Shown piece by piece: positions 31,758-39,942 of a stretch of 39,942 bases of DNA; positions within the stretch are counted from its first letter, which is position 1; every line of letters starts with the position of its first letter. The notes beneath the pieces are model-generated. The model made no database searches. It was not told the origin of the DNA and saw only the letters and a list, made by a program, of their open reading frames with translations. Origin of the DNA: Candidatus Thorarchaeota archaeon (GTDB lineage Archaea > Asgardarchaeota > Thorarchaeia > Thorarchaeales > Thorarchaeaceae). The stretch is taken from positions 1-39,942 of the forward strand of contig JAGSHN010000006.1 in NCBI GenBank assembly GCA_029855935.1, given 5' to 3'. The position numbers and the translations under genes are program-made.

Positions 31758-32726
31758 ATGCCACAGGAGGAACTCAGCGACCTTCAGCGGCAGGTCCTCG
31801 AGCTGAAGCGACAGCGCAATGCGCTGATCCTCGCACACAACTACCAGCGATATGAGGTCCAGCAGATAGCGGACTTCGTTGGCGACTCTCTTCAGCTGGC
31901 TCGCAAGTCGGCAGAGGTCTCGGGCTTTGATATGATAGTCTTTGCCGGCGTGAAGTTCATGGCCGAGATGACTGCCATCCTCGCTGAGGGGACTCCCGTC
32001 TACATTCCATCGAGGGAGGCACTCTGCCCGCTGGCCGGCTGGATCGGTCCCGCAAAGGTGCGAGCCGCAAAGGAGAGACATCCCGGCGCCCCTGTCGTGG
32101 TGTACGTCAACACCACGGCCGCGACAAAGGCAGAATGCGACGCGATCTGTACATCTAGCAACGCGGTTGAGGTCGTGGAATCTCTTGGCGCCGAGACAGT
32201 GCTCTTCGGTCCGGACAAGAATCTTGCAGAGTACGTGCGCAGACAGACGGGTGTCAAGGTCATCGACATCGAACCGCTCGGCCACTGCTACGTCCACCAG
32301 CAGTTCAAGCTGGAGCACATTGAGAGGATGCGGGCACTTCACCCTGATGCCATAGTGATTGCTCATCCTGAGTGTCCGCCGGAGGTACAGGGTGCAGCGG
32401 ACATAATCGGGTCGACGGGCAAGATGGTCAAGATAGTCGCTGAGCCGCCTGAGAAGAAGTTCATAATCGCCACCGAGGTGGGCCTCGTAGAGCAATTGCA
32501 ACACGCCCATCCGGACAAGGTCATTCTACCCGCGTACGAGGGCGCCGTCTGCCGCCAGATGAAGAAGACTACGCTTGAGGGGATACTGCGCGTCCTCAGG
32601 GACCTTCCGCCAGAGAATCTCGTGACCGTGCCGGACGAGGTCAAAGATCGTGTACGCGAGGTCATTAATGCAATGAACGCTCTTCACTCCGCGGCAGAGT
32701 CCGCAGTCGTTGCTGCCGGAAAATAG
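31758..32726 (+). CDS. nadA: Quinolinate synthase A
   Basis: ILAHNYQ, GDSLQL, GVKFMAE, YVNT, CTSSNA, GPDKNL and AHPEC. Fe-S cysteines in ALCPLA, HCYVH and AVCRQM. TTATAA box at about 31718. Confidence 0.96.
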   Translation: MPQEELSDLQRQVLELKRQRNALILAHNYQRYEVQQIADFVGDSLQLARKSAEVSGFDMIVFAGVKFMAEMTAILAEGTPVYIPSREALCPLAGWIGPAKVRAAKERHPGAPVVVYVNTTAATKAECDAICTSSNAVEVVESLGAETVLFGPDKNLAEYVRRQTGVKVIDIEPLGHCYVHQQFKLEHIERMRALHPDAIVIAHPECPPEVQGAADIIGSTGKMVKIVAEPPEKKFIIATEVGLVEQLQHAHPDKVILPAYEGAVCRQMKKTTLEGILRVLRDLPPENLVTVPDEVKDRVREVINAMNALHSAAESAVVAAGK

Positions 32727-32736
32727 ACGAACTGCA

Positions 32737-33393
32737 TCATCGCACTGGCTCGATCAGCGCAGGAATTGCTGAGAGTTGCTTCACCACGATGCCTCTGTGA
32801 CCCGCCCTCCTGAAGTCCTCCTCCGTGAACATTCCCTCAAAAGCAATGAATCTGCAGTAGCCCTTTGCCCTCTCGTAGTCCCTCAGAGAGTCGCCAACAA
32901 AGATGACGTCACCGAGGGGGATTCGATGTCTGTCCCTCACATAGTTGAAGTGGTCAGCACCCTTCTCAAAGCCCGGTTCATAGCCCATTATGTCATCGAA
33001 CAGAGGGACCATATTACGTCGTCGGAAGTACTCCACAATCGTCGGACGGAATGTGGAGGATGACACGAAGAGTCTGATGCCCATCTCCCGGAGTTCGACC
33101 ACGGTCCTCACCGTGTCGGGAAACAACTCCTGATCATATATCCGCTCGACCTTCAGCCTCTCGAACTCGGCGACCGCCCTCTCGTTGAGCGGATTACCGG
33201 GAAAGTTGATCTCAATCTGCTGTTCAAAGGGCAGCCCCGTCGTCATCCGGTAGCGGTCAACGGCCTCACGGTAGTCAATTCCGTAGTACTTCATCATTAC
33301 TTTGACACCGAGTCGCTCGAGAAAGGGCATACTGTTTGCCAGGGTGCCGTCGAAGTCGAATATTATGGCCTTGCATTGAATCTTGCTGTCCAT
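32737..33393 (-). CDS. HAD-superfamily hydrolase (phosphatase)
   Basis: Motif I FDFDGTL, motif II SSS, Lys in FEKG, motif IV VGDSLRD. Confidence 0.9.
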   Translation of the reverse strand: MDSKIQCKAIIFDFDGTLANSMPFLERLGVKVMMKYYGIDYREAVDRYRMTTGLPFEQQIEINFPGNPLNERAVAEFERLKVERIYDQELFPDTVRTVVELREMGIRLFVSSSTFRPTIVEYFRRRNMVPLFDDIMGYEPGFEKGADHFNYVRDRHRIPLGDVIFVGDSLRDYERAKGYCRFIAFEGMFTEEDFRRAGHRGIVVKQLSAIPALIEPVR

Positions 33394-33470
33394 CAGACCT
33401 ACCCTTCTTCTCGTATCGTCCACGTCACTGGTGAGGCCACTCGCTCACTCACGCACGGCTTAAGAGGATT

Positions 33471-33596
33471 TCTCCTGCGACAGATGGAACAGCTTGGCGT
33501 CTTGCACTGTCGAACTGCAATGGGAACACTCTGAGGAAGAGGGCCCGTGGACCGTGGCGCAAGAAGACGAATCGCCACGGGGGCTATCGCAGGAGA
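33471..33596 (-). other. Nested inverted-repeat / multi-stem structured intergenic element
   Basis: Outer 13-bp stem 33471-33483 with 33584-33596, which has one G-U pair on the minus strand. Inner perfect 8-bp stem 33552-33559 with 33573-33580. Confidence 0.45.
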
Positions 33597-33622
33597 GAAC
33601 TTGGCGATACTGATTGCAGATG

Positions 33623-33826
33623 TCATATCGGCTCAGGAGGAGGACTCTCCGAGTCCAGCTCCTCGATACGACGCAAGATGTTTCTCTCCTGTTCCCTGAA
33701 CTCGCTCTCCTTAATCCTGCCACGCATGTATTCGAACCTCAGGTCACTGAGGGCCTTGACAAGTCGTTCCCGTTCCCTGTCCCTCTCGTTCCGCCGACCA
33801 CCGCCCTTTCGTCGTAGTAATGGCAT
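33623..33826 (-). CDS. Small charged helical protein (SHOCT/GvpG-like motif)
   Basis: LSDLRFEYMRGRIKESEFREQERNIL pattern. GGTGAG SD before ATG 33826. Confidence 0.6.
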   Translation of the reverse strand: MPLLRRKGGGRRNERDRERERLVKALSDLRFEYMRGRIKESEFREQERNILRRIEELDSESPPPEPI

Positions 33827-34679
33827 ATGTCTCACCCAATGGAACAGCGGTTCATCCATCACCAACTCGAACAATAAGCATTTCGCAAGACAAGGGCCCA
33901 TATGGAAACGACCAGTGGGTGCTAGGAATGCTCCATCCGCGTTCAGACACCCCTCAACACTGAATCACAGCATTCACTTGTGTCGTCCACCAAGCACAAC
34001 AGTGAGTTCCGACGTCGTCGAAACGTCTACAGGGGAAGTCTCAAGACTCACATGGTCTAGGCCAGTCCATCCCACTCGGTCGGTTCTGGCGCCGCGCACT
34101 ACTCGCCCCCACCAGTCTCATTCGGATCCTAGACGACACGGACGTCGTAGATCTCACGTACGCCAGCCGTGCAAGGAGCGACCCTCCGAAACGACCACGT
34201 ATCCAGTGGGTCGCGAACGTGTTGTCACACCCCGCCATCGGATACGACAACATAGAGGCCCCTCTGGCGAACTCACTCGCAGAGAAGTCCTCCCAGGCAC
34301 ACACGATTCCAAGAACACATTCCCTCTGTGAACAACAGATGCGGCTGGTTTCAATGTCAGAGCAGCCTCCCAAGTCACTGGCCACGTGATACCTTCTACT
34401 CCAAAGAGATAGTTCGTGAATGCCCAAGCAGATATTCCCGTATTTCTCTCAGTCGACATTTTCTGCAATTGCTGTACGTCTTCAACGGGCATCATTCCAC
34501 GAACAATACAAGAACTATCTCATATCTAGTGAACCCGCGCTCGATTTCTCAAAGTACATCAGTGATAGAGCCAAGACAAGCACGCTGTGCTAGACATCTG
34601 GTGAGCTGGAGATTGGTTTCTCACGGTTCTCGTGTCTGATGCGATTCGATTGCATGCCTCAACATCTGCGATAGATATC

Positions 34680-34946
34680 CTATCCCACCACAACTATCAA
34701 CGGAGTCGACAAGAAGCCCAGGAATAGTGTAGACAGTAGACTATCTGGTATCATTAATGTTCTAATCATGCTCGCTCCGAGCCCGATTGCCTCTGACAGT
34801 ACTATGGACCATGGTGCTGTTTCAAAGAATCGTCTTCCAATTCCGTAGAACCCGCTCCCATAGCCGAATAGCAGCCAATAGAAGAATGGAAGTAGTACGC
34901 AGAATACCCAAACGTACACAAGCGGATCAAACGGATACTGTTGCAT
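34680..34946 (-). pseudogene. Small membrane protein, probably truncated or decayed
   Basis: Hydrophobic 88-aa ORF ending right after a TM (VVVG-TAG). Downstream DNA to about 34.0 kb has stops in all frames. Confidence 0.4.
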
Positions 34947-35114
34947 CACGTGAACGTATCTCCCGAGCGATTCTCGCGGTCCAGAGTCACCAGGGCGCCA
35001 TCGGTTAAGCACCGGCCTCAGGGTGACCGCCTTGGCGTGTAGACCGAAAACTGACGGAGTACGTAGCGACACTGCTCTCGCAACAGACTATGTGAGATGG
35101 TCTTGTATGTCTTG

Positions 35115-35681
35115 TCATTCTCTCACGGTCTCTCGCGCCTCTAGGTCTGAATACTCTGCCTCCAGCATATGTACGATTGTCCTTGCCTGAGCTCCCAACT
35201 CGTCCTCACGGTCTAGCAGCGACTGCAATACCTCCTCTGCTGTGTCATTGTGTCTACGAGCGGCAAGAAACATACTCTCAAGATGGTCGGTGAACACCTC
35301 CGTGTCCACGCCGCGGCCCTTCTCGTACGCGGCGACAATCGGGCTCACGGCGAATCTGTAGAAGGTGTTCCTGTATCCCTTCCCTATATGAACAAGTAGA
35401 ACATTCAGTATCACGAGAACGCCAGCCGCACCAAGAGTATGCAGAAACAAAGGAGCCCGCTGGAACATATGGTCAAGAAGATACTGGCCAAGATATCCGA
35501 CAACGAAACCCAGATTCATAGGTAGAGCAACAAGAGTGAGATAGGAGCGGAGGTGGCTACCACACAGGACCTGCCGCAGACGACCAGCATGTCTAGTTGT
35601 GTATTCATCACCCCAGAAGACATAGAGGTATCCAGCACCGAACCATCCTGCTATCAGAATCGCCAGCGGCAAGAAGATCAC
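35115..35681 (-). CDS. 3-TM partner ('immunity-like') protein A with a helical C-terminal domain
   Basis: GTG start overlaps the upstream stop (GTGA). The C-terminus HLE...AEEVLQSLLDREDELGA resembles that of 37261..37782. Confidence 0.65.
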   Translation of the reverse strand: MIFLPLAILIAGWFGAGYLYVFWGDEYTTRHAGRLRQVLCGSHLRSYLTLVALPMNLGFVVGYLGQYLLDHMFQRAPLFLHTLGAAGVLVILNVLLVHIGKGYRNTFYRFAVSPIVAAYEKGRGVDTEVFTDHLESMFLAARRHNDTAEEVLQSLLDREDELGAQARTIVHMLEAEYSDLEARETVRE

Positions 35682-36508
35682 TGTTGTGCCTCCATATACT
35701 CTGTGATTGAGACCTCAAGATAGTGTATCCACACAAGCCACATAGAAACCGCGACAAAAAAGTTGAACGCCACACTGACAATTCCCCAGAGAAGTCGGGA
35801 ACGGTAATTCTCTCTGAATGCATCAAACAAGTTCGAAACGTGCCATAGAATTGGTGTTATGAGTGCAAACAGACCAAGTACTATTGAGCTTGACAGGGCC
35901 AGCGACAACCACATTCCCAGCAGTCCGACGACGAAACTGGCAGTAACTGTGCCTGCTTCATAGGCCATTAGAAGTGCCATCAACCAGTGACTTGAGAGTG
36001 CCAAATAGCCGACCATGATCGCCAGTTTTGTAGCAGGTTCAACGCTCATTGTTATGTAGGCGTCTACTACGCCCAGACTACCTGGCAATATGACACCCGA
36101 CCAGTAGAGAGTATTTTGAACAAAACCCTCAACAGCAGTCGCCTCGGCCACATATGCAGCCCACGAGAGTTTCTGTGCCTCTGTCATCTGATCGTCCACC
36201 AGCGTGTCAATCTCGCACTCCTCGATTCGAAAAGCAAACAGTAGGTCGACCGAAATGTGCAGAATAGCAGTGCCACCTGCGGGAGTAGTAGCTGTCAACA
36301 AGAGATGAGTGCGAGGCCACCAGCCCTCCCACTATGTCACAATCTGCTGAAGCAAGGTCTGAATACTATCCAAGATTGACTGGACAGTTGGCGAAGGTTC
36401 GACCTCTACATAGTATCCGTCAACACTTCTGTCATAGGTCACTAGCTCATCCGGGTCCTGCGCGTTCGGGTCGTGTCTGTGCAGGTCTGCGACGACTCTG
36501 ATGTCATG
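35678..36508 (-). pseudogene. Start-less variable membrane-protein cassette A, with an in-frame TAG at 36332-36334
   Basis: The frame reads HDIRVVADLHRHDPNAQDPDELVTYDRSVDG...QQIVT*WEGWWPRTHLL and continues into the 207-aa ORF. No in-frame ATG lies between the box and the upstream TGA. Confidence 0.65.
36445..36508. repeat. 64-bp homology box, copy 1
   Basis: 57/64 identical to 39373-39436 by manual alignment. Confidence 0.9.
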
Positions 36509-36584
36509 CGATTGGCATACTTGCGAGGCCGTACGCGAAACATCGGTAGTCCTGAATCACCACGAACTGTCGCCCTGACAAGAT

Positions 36585-37169
36585 CTACCATATGGCGGCA
36601 AACAGGGCGACAAGAAGCGTAGCGGCCACAAGCACTATCAACACAAGTACAAAGGGCCCTGACGTGTTGGCTCGGCCTTGAGGTGCACCGGCCATTTCTC
36701 TCCCTGGGGGCGGGCTCTGGTCCCCGGGCTGGTGTGATGCTCTGGCACCACCGGGAGGTTGTCGCCGGGGAGGTTCCATCTCTGAACCTCTTCGCCATCT
36801 TCGATATGGGCTTGAATAGTACGTCCAGGCCATGAGACCAAATGCCGCTGCAAGATACGAGACGATACCACAGATGATACTGTCGGTCGCGAATGCTGGA
36901 TTCTCTTCGAACAAACGGTGGCCAAGGAGTACAGGATTGAGCAGCGCCCAGAAGATAATCGAGGCAATGCACACTATGGTGTTGAATGTAGAACAGTACA
37001 ACTCGTCCAGATAGCGAATGTCAGGACTACTCTGGTCGAACGAGAAGGCTGGTCTGAACTTCTTCCTCGAACTGAGAAAGCGAGCGAGTAACACCCCTCC
37101 AAGGAAAGAGAGAGCCCAGAGCATCACCGCATAGGCCTGAAACATAGGGTCCTCAAAGATCAACGCCAT
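36585..37169 (-). CDS. 4-TM membrane protein with a Pro/Gly-rich loop
   Basis: Four hydrophobic segments. The start Met (37169) is uncertain. Confidence 0.6.
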   Translation of the reverse strand: MALIFEDPMFQAYAVMLWALSFLGGVLLARFLSSRKKFRPAFSFDQSSPDIRYLDELYCSTFNTIVCIASIIFWALLNPVLLGHRLFEENPAFATDSIICGIVSYLAAAFGLMAWTYYSSPYRRWRRGSEMEPPRRQPPGGARASHQPGDQSPPPGREMAGAPQGRANTSGPFVLVLIVLVAATLLVALFAAIW

Positions 37170-37260
37170 CCAGTCATCGCCCCACACCATGCCTCTAGAC
37201 AGCATATCACTGTATTCAGTCCTGACCATGTCAGATTCAAGTGAGTGAGTCCAGCGATCA

Positions 37261-37782
37261 TCAGAGCAAGTCGTGCTCACTGAGAACTCGATGCACGGTT
37301 GCGCCCAACGAGTCTCCTCTCATCGCCAACTCCCGAAGCACAGAGAGAGCCCTTCGTGAGGAGTCCCTCTCAGGGTCACTCTGGATCTTCACGACTAGAG
37401 CCTCTAGATGTGCTCTTGGGTCTTCGGCCTCCTTGAGGTCTTGCAGGAGCCAGCGGCGTAGCAACCACGTGTCATCAGTCCTCATGCGCATCCATCGTAC
37501 CACGTTTGCGGCAAATGTAACACCTCCCGCGCCCCACGAGAGCAAAGTGATGACTGGATGTATGTATGCCTGGGTCAATTGAATCACTAGGTCTATCAGA
37601 GCTCCATAGAATATGCAGAAAGTAGTCAAATGCAGAAGAAGGCCCACCCAGAATGAAGAAAAGAGTCTAGTGCCAAGCCGCTGAGCAATCGAATGAAAAT
37701 GTTTCTGACTACTCGAAAAGTCGAGCAGAAGAACAATGATCCAAACAGTTCCAGACAGAAGAACAAACTCGATGATCTCCAT
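37261..37782 (-). CDS. 3-TM partner ('immunity-like') protein C, paralog of 35115..35681
   Basis: Three TMs, then HLEALV...ALSVLRELAMRGDSLGA. ATG lies 1 nt after the upstream TAA. Confidence 0.65.
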   Translation of the reverse strand: MEIIEFVLLSGTVWIIVLLLDFSSSQKHFHSIAQRLGTRLFSSFWVGLLLHLTTFCIFYGALIDLVIQLTQAYIHPVITLLSWGAGGVTFAANVVRWMRMRTDDTWLLRRWLLQDLKEAEDPRAHLEALVVKIQSDPERDSSRRALSVLRELAMRGDSLGATVHRVLSEHDLL

Positions 37783-37783
37783 A

Positions 37784-38119
37784 TTACCGCCACCACATCG
37801 CCAAGGCACAACTCAATGAGTGCATATGGTATAGAAACTTGATTGAACACGACATAGTAGACTGGTCAAGGTCCAGTCCAGTAGGCTGCAACACTACTGA
37901 CGACATCATTTTGAAGTCCCTCTGCGTCAATGAGAAGACTCTGTCTTTCTTTTCGGTATGACCATCATCCACCACAATCTTGCAGTCTTCCTGAAGGAGG
38001 ACTACAAGTACCCGGAACTCTGGTAGCCAGAGGAACTGTTCTATGGAAAAAAGTACACGTTGAACCAGGCTTTTGTAGCACCGATCCGCATATGCATCGC
38101 CGCAGAGAATTAGTATCAC
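37784..38119 (-). pseudogene. Short remnant of a variable cassette (C)
   Basis: Contains FLWLPEFRVLVVLL, compare GWPELVVELL and WWPRTHLLL in cassettes B and A. Ends immediately before the partner gene. Lacks the 64-bp box. Confidence 0.4.
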
Positions 38120-38133
38120 TGCCCGTTTCGGAA

Positions 38134-38649
38134 CTACAGGATTCCAATGGGCTCATCTGAAGGAGAATCATTTCTTTCTGTGTCATCCTCCATTCCAATA
38201 GTGCGTTCGTTGGTCTCGAAAAACAACTTCCACTTCATTCTTGTTCTTACTTCCTCCAGTTTGCTGAGAGAACTAAGCACTCGAACCAGCCCCAATGCAA
38301 AAGAGACCATATAGATGTGAAAAATGTGGAAAATCGGGAAGACAAGTCCGAGAGTCACGGTCAAGATATTCTCGATTGATTGGCCTATCAGAGCCCATGC
38401 GATTGCATATAGTATTGCCCAGCAGATTGCCCCGGATGAGAAGACCTTGAGGATGGGTCTTTGAAGTTCTGTCTCATACTGTGCCTTATCGGTCGATGAA
38501 TTCTCTACTATTCTTCTGAGGTCTTCTATTGGACCCCTTAGCTTCCACAATGGAAGTTCTGTGGCACCCAATACAGTGAGTGCAAAGAACAGGTTCTGTA
38601 CGACAAATTCGATTGTATTCTCCTGAAGCAACATATTTTCCTCCTGCAT
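38134..38649 (-). CDS. 3-TM partner ('immunity-like') protein B
   Basis: AT-rich 171-aa membrane ORF starting 4 nt after the cassette B stop. Confidence 0.65.
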   Translation of the reverse strand: MQEENMLLQENTIEFVVQNLFFALTVLGATELPLWKLRGPIEDLRRIVENSSTDKAQYETELQRPILKVFSSGAICWAILYAIAWALIGQSIENILTVTLGLVFPIFHIFHIYMVSFALGLVRVLSSLSKLEEVRTRMKWKLFFETNERTIGMEDDTERNDSPSDEPIGIL

Positions 38650-38653
38650 CTAG

Positions 38654-39436
38654 TCAATCTGGTACAACAATATCATGATAGTAGTCTATTCTACAAAGTA
38701 CGTATGCAAGAGATGTCAAAATGAAAAGGATTCTTGCGACACGTAAGACAGGGTTCCACGTGCCCACCTTTGTCATATCGGTGGCAAACAGAGCCAGATC
38801 AAATGCCCATCTGATGAAGGTAGTAGGCCATTTCTTGAGGGGGATTAGCAGATTCACTACTAGGGCGGCAAACGTGACAGCATAGAACTCTAAGATTTGA
38901 TCATGTGAAACTCCCAACGCCAGCGCAGATGTAGCTATCGCTTCTACGGCGGCAAAGAAAGCAAGCGAGAGCCCGGTTGCTACTCCACCCGCTCCAGCAC
39001 AGGCTACGAGTCCGGCCCCTGACGAGCGAAGTGTATCAAATGTGAACCATGCGAAAAACGCCATGTTTCACAGTTTCAGAATTGAAACTAGACCTGAAAA
39101 TATCGAGAATACTATGTCCGGCATCGTCAAAGATGAAATCAGGAAATTGAATCAGTCCTCTAGAATATCAACGACTATGCGCAAACTACCCAGAAGATTC
39201 ATTGCGAACTCGTAGACAACATCCCGTGCCAATCTGAGTAGTTCCACCACTAGCTCAGGCCATCCAATATTGAGGATTCAATCGCATTGACAGTACGCCC
39301 AAGAATTGTCAAGTGCAACTTCGGCTGTGGCTTCGTCAGCTTTGCCATTCAACGTTCCGTCAAATGCCACAGGCTCGTTCGGGTGCTGTGCGTTCGGGTC
39401 GTGTCTGTTCAGGTCTGCGACGACGCTGATGTCGTG
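38654..39436 (-). pseudogene. Variable membrane-protein cassette B with three in-frame TGA codons (39278-80, 39152-54, 39068-70)
   Basis: A single frame reads HDISVVADLNRHDPNAQHPNEPVAFDGTLNG...CD*ILNIGWPEL...ILED*FNFL...LKL*NMAFFAWF and continues to the stop at 38654. Confidence 0.7.
39373..39436. repeat. 64-bp homology box, copy 2
   Basis: 57/64 identical to 36445-36508. Confidence 0.9.
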
Positions 39437-39500
39437 GACCCTCATCTCTACGAGGGGATAGAAGTGGGCCCTACGGAGTTTGGCCCGGTGTTTCGATGTC

Positions 39501-39942
39501 TCACTCAGACGCAAAATACTCGTCCAGCAGTCCATCGCTAATCATCTCCTCAGCGTCTGCTGCTGCCCGGCATTTGATGGTGGGCCTCCGAATCCAGCAG
39601 TAGGCCCATGGAATGAGAATCACAAGAATGCCGACAGCAGCGTAACCTCCTATAGCATAGAAGAACAGAAAGGTCAGAACGTGGCCTGCGAACCTGATGG
39701 AGTCCACCACAACGTCATAGGCCAGTTGATGGTTGTTGTAGAGAGACAAACACCACTGTGCAAATCGAGACTCGCTTGCAATCATCTCGACACCATATCT
39801 CTCGCGCAGGTATTGTCTCTCCAGTGCACTATGAACGGGACTGCTGAGACAAGTGGACACGACAAGGAGCACTGCGGCAGGAATACCGAACTGTACAATG
39901 CCAGTCCCCCAGGCTGCCCAGTAGGTCTCCACAGTATTCCAA
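39501..39942 (-). CDS. Small membrane protein, probably 5'-truncated by the window edge; likely partner of an upstream cassette
   Basis: Hydrophobic ORF that stays open to the window end. Confidence 0.55.
   Translation of the reverse strand, partial: WNTVETYWAAWGTGIVQFGIPAAVLLVVSTCLSSPVHSALERQYLRERYGVEMIASESRFAQWCLSLYNNHQLAYDVVVDSIRFAGHVLTFLFFYAIGGYAAVGILVILIPWAYCWIRRPTIKCRAAADAEEMISDGLLDEYFASE

Follow-up and report, generated by a model that had tools for sequence, protein, structure and literature searches.

Background

Bacterial polymorphic toxin systems such as CdiA-CT/CdiI and Rhs maintain orphan tips that lack a start codon and begin at a junction motif, and their orphan immunity genes are kept (PMC9086364, PMC3482391); the CdiA-CT of Escherichia coli EC93 acts on membranes (PMC9086364). 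Polymorphic toxins can also carry caspase-like releasing peptidases just upstream of the tip, and few archaea carry toxin-like systems of this kind (Zhang et al. 2012, PMC3482391). In Thermococcales, the VARTIG system comprises a large surface protein with a hypervariable C-terminal region that is shuffled by recombination, varying an exposed Ig domain, and variable downstream genes in a polymorphic-toxin-like organization of unknown function (Makarova et al. 2021, PMC8416519).

Here we analyze a 39,942-nt stretch of DNA (the window, whose positions serve as coordinates throughout) from a Candidatus Thorarchaeota archaeon, corresponding to the entire contig C25 of a 2.97-Mb, 32-contig genome. 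Its last part, from 34.7 to 39.9 kb, together with 1.1 kb of contig C26, is probably a set of displaced spare C-terminal cassettes of a polymorphic surface protein, as judged from sequence comparison. Each cassette consists of a short conserved box and a variable, predicted membrane-embedded tail, followed by a small partner gene; the full-length protein that ends in such a tail is referred to as the carrier. The genetic logic of the bacterial cassette systems (carrier, box, tip, partner and orphan stores) is all present, built from undescribed parts, and the variable module is predicted to be embedded in the membrane and not to be a soluble enzyme. The cassette logic is familiar, unlike its components, its host and a variable module that sits in the membrane; our literature search found no published description of this Thorarchaeota system.

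A repeated box opens start-less cassettes

The array contains an 82-nt repeat (36427-36508 and 39355-39436, 84% identity), within which 57 of 64 positions are identical between 36445-36508 and 39373-39436, with a GC content of 40/64 in each copy. The coding sense of the box is the minus strand, its junction motif is HDIxVVADLNRHDP, and the peptides encoded by the two copies are HDIRVVADLHRHDPNAQDPDE and HDISVVADLNRHDPNAQHPNE. A search of the whole genome retrieved the second copy at E=1.3e-19, which excludes a chance repeat, together with three further copies on contigs C7 and C26 in which the homology reaches far upstream; the genome holds at least five box copies, including two on C7, in addition to two degraded ones there, and the one on C26. 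The earlier note on this DNA, made from the letters of the window, had proposed that more cassettes would be found elsewhere in the genome, as is the case, and the box identity and base composition that it gave are reproduced here, including the AT-rich stretch 38581-38640 (GC 22/60).

The first cassette, tail a (35678-36508, minus strand, 276 codons), is truncated at its 5' end at the His codon of HDI. It opens with box a (36440-36508), 69 nt of carrier homology starting at that codon, and has no start codon, either of its own or 5' of the box. Tail a encodes about four hydrophobic segments within its last 120 residues, and its frame is interrupted by an in-frame TAG at 36332-36334, produced by a single G-to-A change (TGG to TAG) at a conserved Trp of the WWEGWWP motif of its homologues, among them an intact orphan in genome G011 to which tail a is 61% identical. 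Tail b (38654-39445, minus strand) measures 263 codons counted from a Met ahead of the box, and box b (39368-39479, minus strand) includes 43 nt of additional upstream homology (FYPLVEMRV). Three in-frame TGA codons (39278-39280, 39152-39154 and 39068-39070) interrupt tail b, whose WP motif and hydrophobic segments remain in frame, and among proteins of 144-461 aa a search with its variable part, reading TGA as Trp, identified no homologue. The two tail frames, described earlier as spanning some 260-275 codons, are thus both interrupted.

Since C25 and C26 share an exact overlap of 151 nt, between the right end of the former and the start of the latter, the locus can be read past the right edge of the window. 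A third cassette, c, lies there on C26, 0.1-1.1 kb beyond the edge, with an intact 332-codon frame in which homology to the carrier begins at SSFRKTGRLWWDEYDG. The conserved Met codon located three codons ahead of HDI (VEMRVHDI; 39443-39445 in the window) is present in all copies except a, and in intact orphans like cassette c it could in principle serve as the start of tail-only proteins of approximately 260 residues.

Each tail is tightly followed by its partner gene on the same strand, with the spacing that had been described. The stop codon of tail a and the GTG start of partner a (35115-35681) overlap by 4 nt (35678-35681), and a 4-nt gap (38650-38653) separates the stop codon of tail b from partner b (38134-38649). 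Partner a is an intact protein of 188 aa that has membrane segments near its N-terminus and a helical C-terminal part bearing the signature REDELGAQA. Partner b, also intact (171 aa), presents two to three hydrophobic segments between residues 66 and 120. Partner c (39501-39942 in the window, minus strand; 168 aa in full) has its 5' end beyond the window on C26, after the intact cassette c. The pattern of decay is hence one in which partners a and b are intact and tails a and b together accumulate four nonsense codons.

The breaks of the contigs at repeats and the three in-frame TGA codons of tail b could be taken as signs of an assembly artefact, a transposon end, a structured RNA or TGA recoding of the tail frames, an explanation that we regard as extremely improbable. 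An independent 11.6-kb Logan contig, assembled from a hydrothermal vent metagenome that is probably the source run, covers positions 33000-38001 with 0 differences and crosses box a, which is therefore no assembly artefact. In dozens of genomes the box is part of a coding sequence and coincides with a domain boundary. Furthermore, the array contains no Pfam transposase or integrase and no tRNA (the sole tRNA of the window is at 20.5 kb), and Rfam produced no match at E<=0.1 in the 32000-39942 interval. Recoding was rejected because tail a, tail b and partner a all end at an ordinary TGA stop. The artefact and the transposon end, which the earlier note had named as outcomes that would undo its proposal, are thereby disfavored.

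Domain organization of the carrier

The carrier had been predicted to lie just past the right edge of the window, where we find instead orphan cassette c followed by housekeeping genes such as feoAB; the 5' part of the carrier gene resides on contig C22. This contig encodes 848 carrier residues, running off the contig end inside the last lectin domain, and is the sole such carrier N-terminal part in this genome; it shows 61% identity to residues 51-832 of a 1162-aa carrier from the same-genus genome G002. C22 and C9 each overlap the end of C7 by 51 nt, and the tail and partner genes at the start of C7 are 60% and 53% identical, respectively, to those of the G002 carrier locus. By synteny with G002, this tail and partner likely constitute the live tip of the C22 carrier.

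The order of elements in the carrier comprises a predicted signal peptide, a probable clan-CD (CHAT/caspase-like) domain, ConA-like lectin repeats, the box, a small conserved helix/sheet module with the WP motif, and predicted membrane helices. Hydropathy predicts about 4-5 membrane segments per tail and 2-3 per partner, making the tip of the carrier a hypervariable bundle of about 4-5 predicted membrane helices. The hydrophobic, signal-like N-terminal segment is the sole export feature seen in the carrier, and no secretion genes were found in the array. Pfam searches with nine proteins (the carrier part, the C7 copy, tails and partners) returned no match above threshold, and the homologues, which their sources label Candidatus Thorarchaeota or Promethearchaeia, are essentially devoid of Pfam annotation; their names agree with the assignment of the window to an Asgard archaeon in the earlier note.

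An AlphaFold (AF2) model of the C7 copy was computed from 28 sequences, with a mean predicted local distance difference test (pLDDT) score of 77. Residues 13-170 form a beta-sandwich (pLDDT 80-93) whose last strand, MRVHDIRVVAD, is the first half of the box, and residues 172-193 form a disordered linker corresponding to its second half (NRHNPNAQDPDEP), followed by a helix, a four-stranded sheet with the WP motif and long helices spanning residues 268-432. The product of the box is thus predicted to close a ConA-like lectin domain with its last beta-strand and to continue as a disordered linker rich in Asp, Asn and Pro. In comparisons with known structures (VIA), the sandwich matched a phage carbohydrate-binding module (5ly8) at Z 13.0 and dozens of GH16, PL7, LNS and galectin chains at Z 9-10, and Foldseek retrieved galectins at E values of about 1e-5 to 1e-4. 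The modeled domain closed by the box is a ConA-like jelly-roll beta-sandwich of approximately 160 residues, with a predicted lectin role.

The best structural match of the carrier N-terminal domain was SAVED-CHAT (Z 10.5, root-mean-square deviation 4.0, 159 aligned residues), followed by legumains, C11 peptidases and caspases (Z 7-8). His (in HGG) and Cys (in AC) are kept in at least 90% of 27 aligned sequences, and the domain is a probable clan-CD protease. Comparison of the helical tail with known structures yielded syntaxin-like and generic helical bundles only, at a Z of about 10 that is uninformative for such bundles.

Probable exchange of tails at the box

We compared the box copies of this genome and of its relatives, expressing positions as offsets from the box in the C7a copy (C7 2849-4150). 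DNA homology to C7a starts at nested positions, at about -490 (C22 and C9), about -200 (c), -43 (b) and 0 (a), whereas its 3' edge falls at +68 in all copies. The DNA preceding the box is 93-100% identical among the copies within the genome, compared to only ~71% identity at the protein level with the carrier of same-genus G002, indicating within-genome homogenization. Among 30 proteins (435 pairs), similarity before the box and similarity of the tail were uncorrelated (r = -0.02): 90 of the 435 pairs combine alike pre-box parts with unrelated tails, and several pairs combine near-identical tails with divergent bodies. The prediction that relatives would vary in their tail exactly at the box junction is thus borne out.

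Full-length carriers and orphan-sized frames have tail types in common. One such carrier, P0050 (1251 residues), ends in a counterpart of tail a (41% identity over 275 aa), and the next gene after P0050, with a 4-nt overlap as in the window, encodes a homologue of partner a (28% identity, E=2e-12). By homology, tail a and partner a thus form, in another population, the live tip of a full-length carrier. Twenty tails had enough sequence to be evaluated, 16 of them being intact and reaching their stop 257-278 codons past the box. The distance from the box to the C-terminus is 257-283 residues in these 16 and in the full-length carriers, in agreement with the anticipated large exported carrier bearing the box about 270 aa from its C-terminus. 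The open frame upstream of the box amounts to 16, 35 and 75 codons in a, b and c, to 34-371 codons in relatives and to 890-992 codons in full-length carriers. Taken together, these comparisons indicate that the tails are shuffled relative to a conserved carrier part, and a store of start-less C-terminal cassettes with partner genes, as originally proposed, agrees with the absence of a start in copy a and with the nested 5' homology.

These observations bear on a simpler explanation, according to which the array holds ordinary, fast-evolving paralogues with decaying duplicates, the box being kept as the closure of a domain with no exchange of cassettes. In its favor, a folded domain ends with the beta-strand that the box encodes, both window tails are pseudogenes, and the data, which consist of contigs only, contain no recombinant molecule. 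Decay of paralogues does not, however, account for nested 5' homology with a 3' edge common to all copies, for the within-genome identity of the pre-box DNA, for the uncoupling of body and tail similarity, or for the occurrence of the same tail types on carriers and orphans, and we consider it improbable. In the preferred reading, that of exchangeable cassettes, homologous recombination in the box or in the lectin-coding sequence would swap the expressed tail and partner of the single carrier for a stored pair; alternatively, recombination would displace the old tail and partner into the array. Stored tails would be silent and free to decay, as with a and b, and partner genes would keep their own starts and stay intact.

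Tails and partners co-segregate and co-diverge

The 16 intact tails are all followed, at -1 to +46 nt from the stop codon, by an open reading frame of 103-228 aa. None of the six small genes of the array has a paralogue within the genome. Homologues of partner a were located in G011 (two), G001 (two), G035 and a JGI contig (L075), in each case directly after a homologue of tail a. The identities of tail and partner in pair a fall together (61/66, 50/61, 38/42, 38/32 and 31/27%, and 41/28% on the carrier P0050), and in G002:C12 the counterparts of pair c are 62% (tail) and 41% (partner) identical. For pairs a and c, tail and partner co-segregate and co-diverge at every locus examined. The ratio of nonsynonymous to synonymous substitution rates (dN/dS) was 0.36-0.47 for pair a (0.42 for partner a versus G011) and 0.13 for tail c.

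Some partners, including partner a and p182 (a tail-less gene of the array), share the C-terminal signature R-[EDG]-D-x-[LI]-G-x-x-A, which partners b and c lack. BLASTP between partner a and p182 gave a non-significant E=0.43, the short C-terminal signature being all that they have in common. The partner-only genes comprise p182, p130 and a cluster in G002, and a homologue of p130 (47-48% identity) stands directly after a tail-like frame in G002:C1. For partner b, the sole relative found was a 32% identical homologue in G002:C1 that stands without a tail. This tail-less gene belongs to a cluster (L074; G002:C1:990421-993747) of small membrane genes, one of them with the partner C-terminal signature, that comes after a protein with six tandem VIDEVGVKA repeats.

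A further possibility is that the array provides pilE/pilS-like variation of a surface protein as an escape from viruses or predators, in which case the partner would do no more than assist assembly. In pilE/pilS, where the variable segment is the exposed, immunodominant one, silent 5'-truncated copies accompany one expression locus, an arrangement that the array resembles, and a lectin-like exported carrier would suit this possibility. It is nevertheless the exposed lectin part that is conserved, the variable part being predicted to be membrane-embedded, and each variant has a partner gene of its own, which antigenic variation does not require. We rate this possibility as even less probable than the decay of ordinary paralogues.

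Occurrence in Thorarchaeota genomes

The lectin-plus-box part is present in 44 of 86 genomes of the family, representing 14 of its 16 genera, commonly with a single 1060-1320-residue carrier ahead of orphan arrays. As far as searched, the surface protein family appears to be confined to Thorarchaeota. Cassette a shows 60-66% protein identity to copies in another genus (G011:C221; L068 and L071), with dS values of 0.6-0.7. For reference, a very conserved ABC ATPase is 65% identical across the same genera, and a more divergent housekeeping protein of the window is 40% identical. Set against these housekeeping proteins, the identity of cassette a hints at lateral spread of cassettes between genera.

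Comparison with described systems

On sequence comparison, the architecture corresponds to a polymorphic system of C-terminal cassettes and orphan stores, like that of CdiA-CT/CdiI and Rhs. Among relatives, a conserved body is joined to sharply variable C-terminal modules, a small gene with a putative protective role lies immediately 3' of each variable module, and start-less orphan cassettes of tip and partner carry 5' homology to the carrier. With orphan CdiA-CT/CdiI, Rhs-CT/RhsI and MafB/MafI the system shares a single large exported carrier, conserved in its body and variable at its C-terminus, a conserved junction of short length (the box playing a part similar to that of VENN), a small cognate gene immediately 3' of each variable part, and arrays of orphan tips that begin at the junction or near it without a start codon, accompanied by intact orphan partner genes. 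In contrast with those systems, it lacks any CdiB, FHA, VENN, YD or Rhs-core element, Pfam recognizes in it no known domain of toxins or immunity proteins, its host is an archaeon with a single membrane, its variable part consists of 4-5 predicted membrane helices with a putative toxicity, and its orphan arrays are found also away from the carrier locus.

Membership of two bacterial families was considered specifically. For contact-dependent inhibition (CDI), neither the 848-aa carrier part nor the C7 copy contained a CdiB, FHA/haemagglutinin or VENN Pfam domain. For Rhs/YD, whose hallmarks are YD repeats and the PxxxxDPxGL core end, there was no RHS or YD Pfam match, and the body is made of a CHAT-like domain and ConA-like sandwiches. 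Both memberships are excluded because the defining domains are absent.

The closest published archaeal analogue is VARTIG, which likewise combines an archaeal host, a large surface protein with a shuffled C-terminal region and variable downstream genes. Unlike in VARTIG, the exposed lectin domains are here conserved and the predicted membrane tail varies; the protein families are unrelated, and start-less orphan cassettes with nested 5' homology are prominent. The carrier also resembles polymorphic toxins with caspase-like releasing peptidases in that one polypeptide combines a clan-CD-like domain, in which His and Cys are conserved, with the variable C-terminal module, but this domain is N-terminal and far from the tail, and its assignment is a mid-range structural match (Z 10.5).

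Proposed roles of tails and partners

Two roles can be considered for the tail and its partner. In the first, which we favor tentatively, the tail might be a membrane-acting effector passed or exposed to neighboring cells and the partner might protect the producer. In the second, which seems rather unlikely, the pair would be a self-recognition label devoid of toxicity, with tail and partner binding allele-specifically in the membrane and the spare cassettes permitting a change of identity, much as in the VARTIG proposal or in the IdsD/IdsE proteins. In Proteus mirabilis, IdsD and IdsE pair in an allele-specific manner, with variable regions in or near membrane segments, and IdsD is delivered by type VI secretion. 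Their allele-specific pairing of two proteins serves here as a model only for the coding of identity by tail and partner, since there is no sequence or fold relation and IdsD/IdsE are not known to have a silent cassette store. Recognition would be consistent with the location of the allele-like diversity of tail and partner in membrane segments, with their strict co-divergence, with lectin-like ectodomains suited to cell-cell contact, and with the lack of a toxin fold in Pfam searches and structural comparison. The decay of tails next to intact partners and the existence of partner-only genes are, however, more typical of retained protection genes. Because tails are lost while partners are kept, the effector/protector role is favored over the self-recognition label.

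The Asp/Asn-rich linker encoded by the box may be cut by the clan-CD domain of the carrier itself, and a candidate stretch for this cleavage is ADLNRHDPNAQDPDEP. This self-cleavage is suggested by the preference of caspases and legumains for Asp or Asn. Combining these elements, one might envision, in a more speculative vein, a lineage-specific system of conflict or kin discrimination in Thorarchaeota, with a lectin surface protein, a membrane-helix module released at the box linker by the caspase-like domain, allele-matched partners that would neutralize or recognize it, and switching of specificity by recombination with a silent store of cassettes. Almost nothing is known of how Asgard archaea deal with their neighbors. 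If the system acts between cells, it would provide a first handle on social or antagonistic behavior in the archaeal lineage closest to eukaryotes, as well as a new class of membrane-acting effector/protector pairs.

Several observations weigh against the reading of the array as a cassette store serving an effector/protector system. Among the contigs we saw no recombinant molecule that links the carrier with tail a, b or c, the evidence for exchange is mostly comparative and cannot date events, and the join between C22 and its tail is absent from the assembly. On the functional side, no toxin, immunity or secretion-system family of Pfam matches any part, the CHAT-like assignment rests on a mid-range structural score, and a multi-helix tail would normally insert into the membrane of its own producer rather than reach another cell. 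Furthermore, p231, p182 and the 1.25-kb spacer of the array, described below, do not fit a simple model of pairs.

Remaining genes of the array and genomic surroundings

On the minus strand, the order from 5' to 3' is cassette c (on C26), partner c, box b with tail b, partner b, a 39-codon lectin scrap, p182, p231, box a with tail a, partner a and p130, which is followed by a 1.25-kb featureless spacer and by a HAD-type gene. Tail/partner pairs do not make up the whole row, which also contains the partner-only genes p182 and p130, the unrelated membrane gene p231 and the lectin scrap. The GC content of the array is 44-54%, compared to 57% in the remaining window.

The lectin scrap (37969-38085, minus strand) retains about 39 codons of the last lectin domain of the carrier (the GYFNVYFYPQ...SSGYIYSSF region) and is 65-74% identical to carriers and orphans of many genomes. 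The p182 gene (37261-37809, minus strand), a tail-less member of the partner superfamily, encodes two to three hydrophobic segments (three overlapping Kyte-Doolittle peaks) and a C-terminal signature, RGDSLGATV. At 37782-37786 there is a TAA, one base and an ATG, around the 1-nt gap that had been reported at 37783, and 37782 offers an alternative ATG start for p182. The end of p182 is overlapped by 20 nt by p231 (36585-37280, minus strand), a membrane protein of 231 residues with a Pro/Gly-rich stretch and a very hydrophobic C-terminal transmembrane segment, for which our searches gave neither a paralogue within the genome nor a homologue at the related loci examined, nor a Pfam match. The last gene, p130 (34680-35072, minus strand), encodes a small partner-type membrane protein with two hydrophobic segments and no Pfam match, and its own tail is absent from the window. 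The spacer between the array and the HAD-type gene (33424-34679, 1.25 kb) contains no convincing open reading frame and no Rfam match, and has no homologue in related arrays.

The break between C25 and C26 falls within the partner c gene. A Logan unitig over this gene (39417-39942 plus 113 nt of C26) has a depth of 47, versus 19-22 elsewhere in the array, and the partner c segment may be present twice, or in two contexts in the population. Other Logan unitigs end at the lectin scrap and at box b, the pattern expected of repeats.

The flanks of the array map to two different contigs of G002, with no cassettes adjoining either; as aligned, this comparison is evidence of rearrangement only, and not an empty-site comparison. 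In G002:C6 (L066), feoAB and a LarA-like gene adjoin, and here each of them borders a cassette array (C26:2100-4500 and C9:900-2300), placing the arrays at rearrangement breakpoints. The repeats account for several of the contig breaks and rearrangement breakpoints in these metagenome-assembled genomes.

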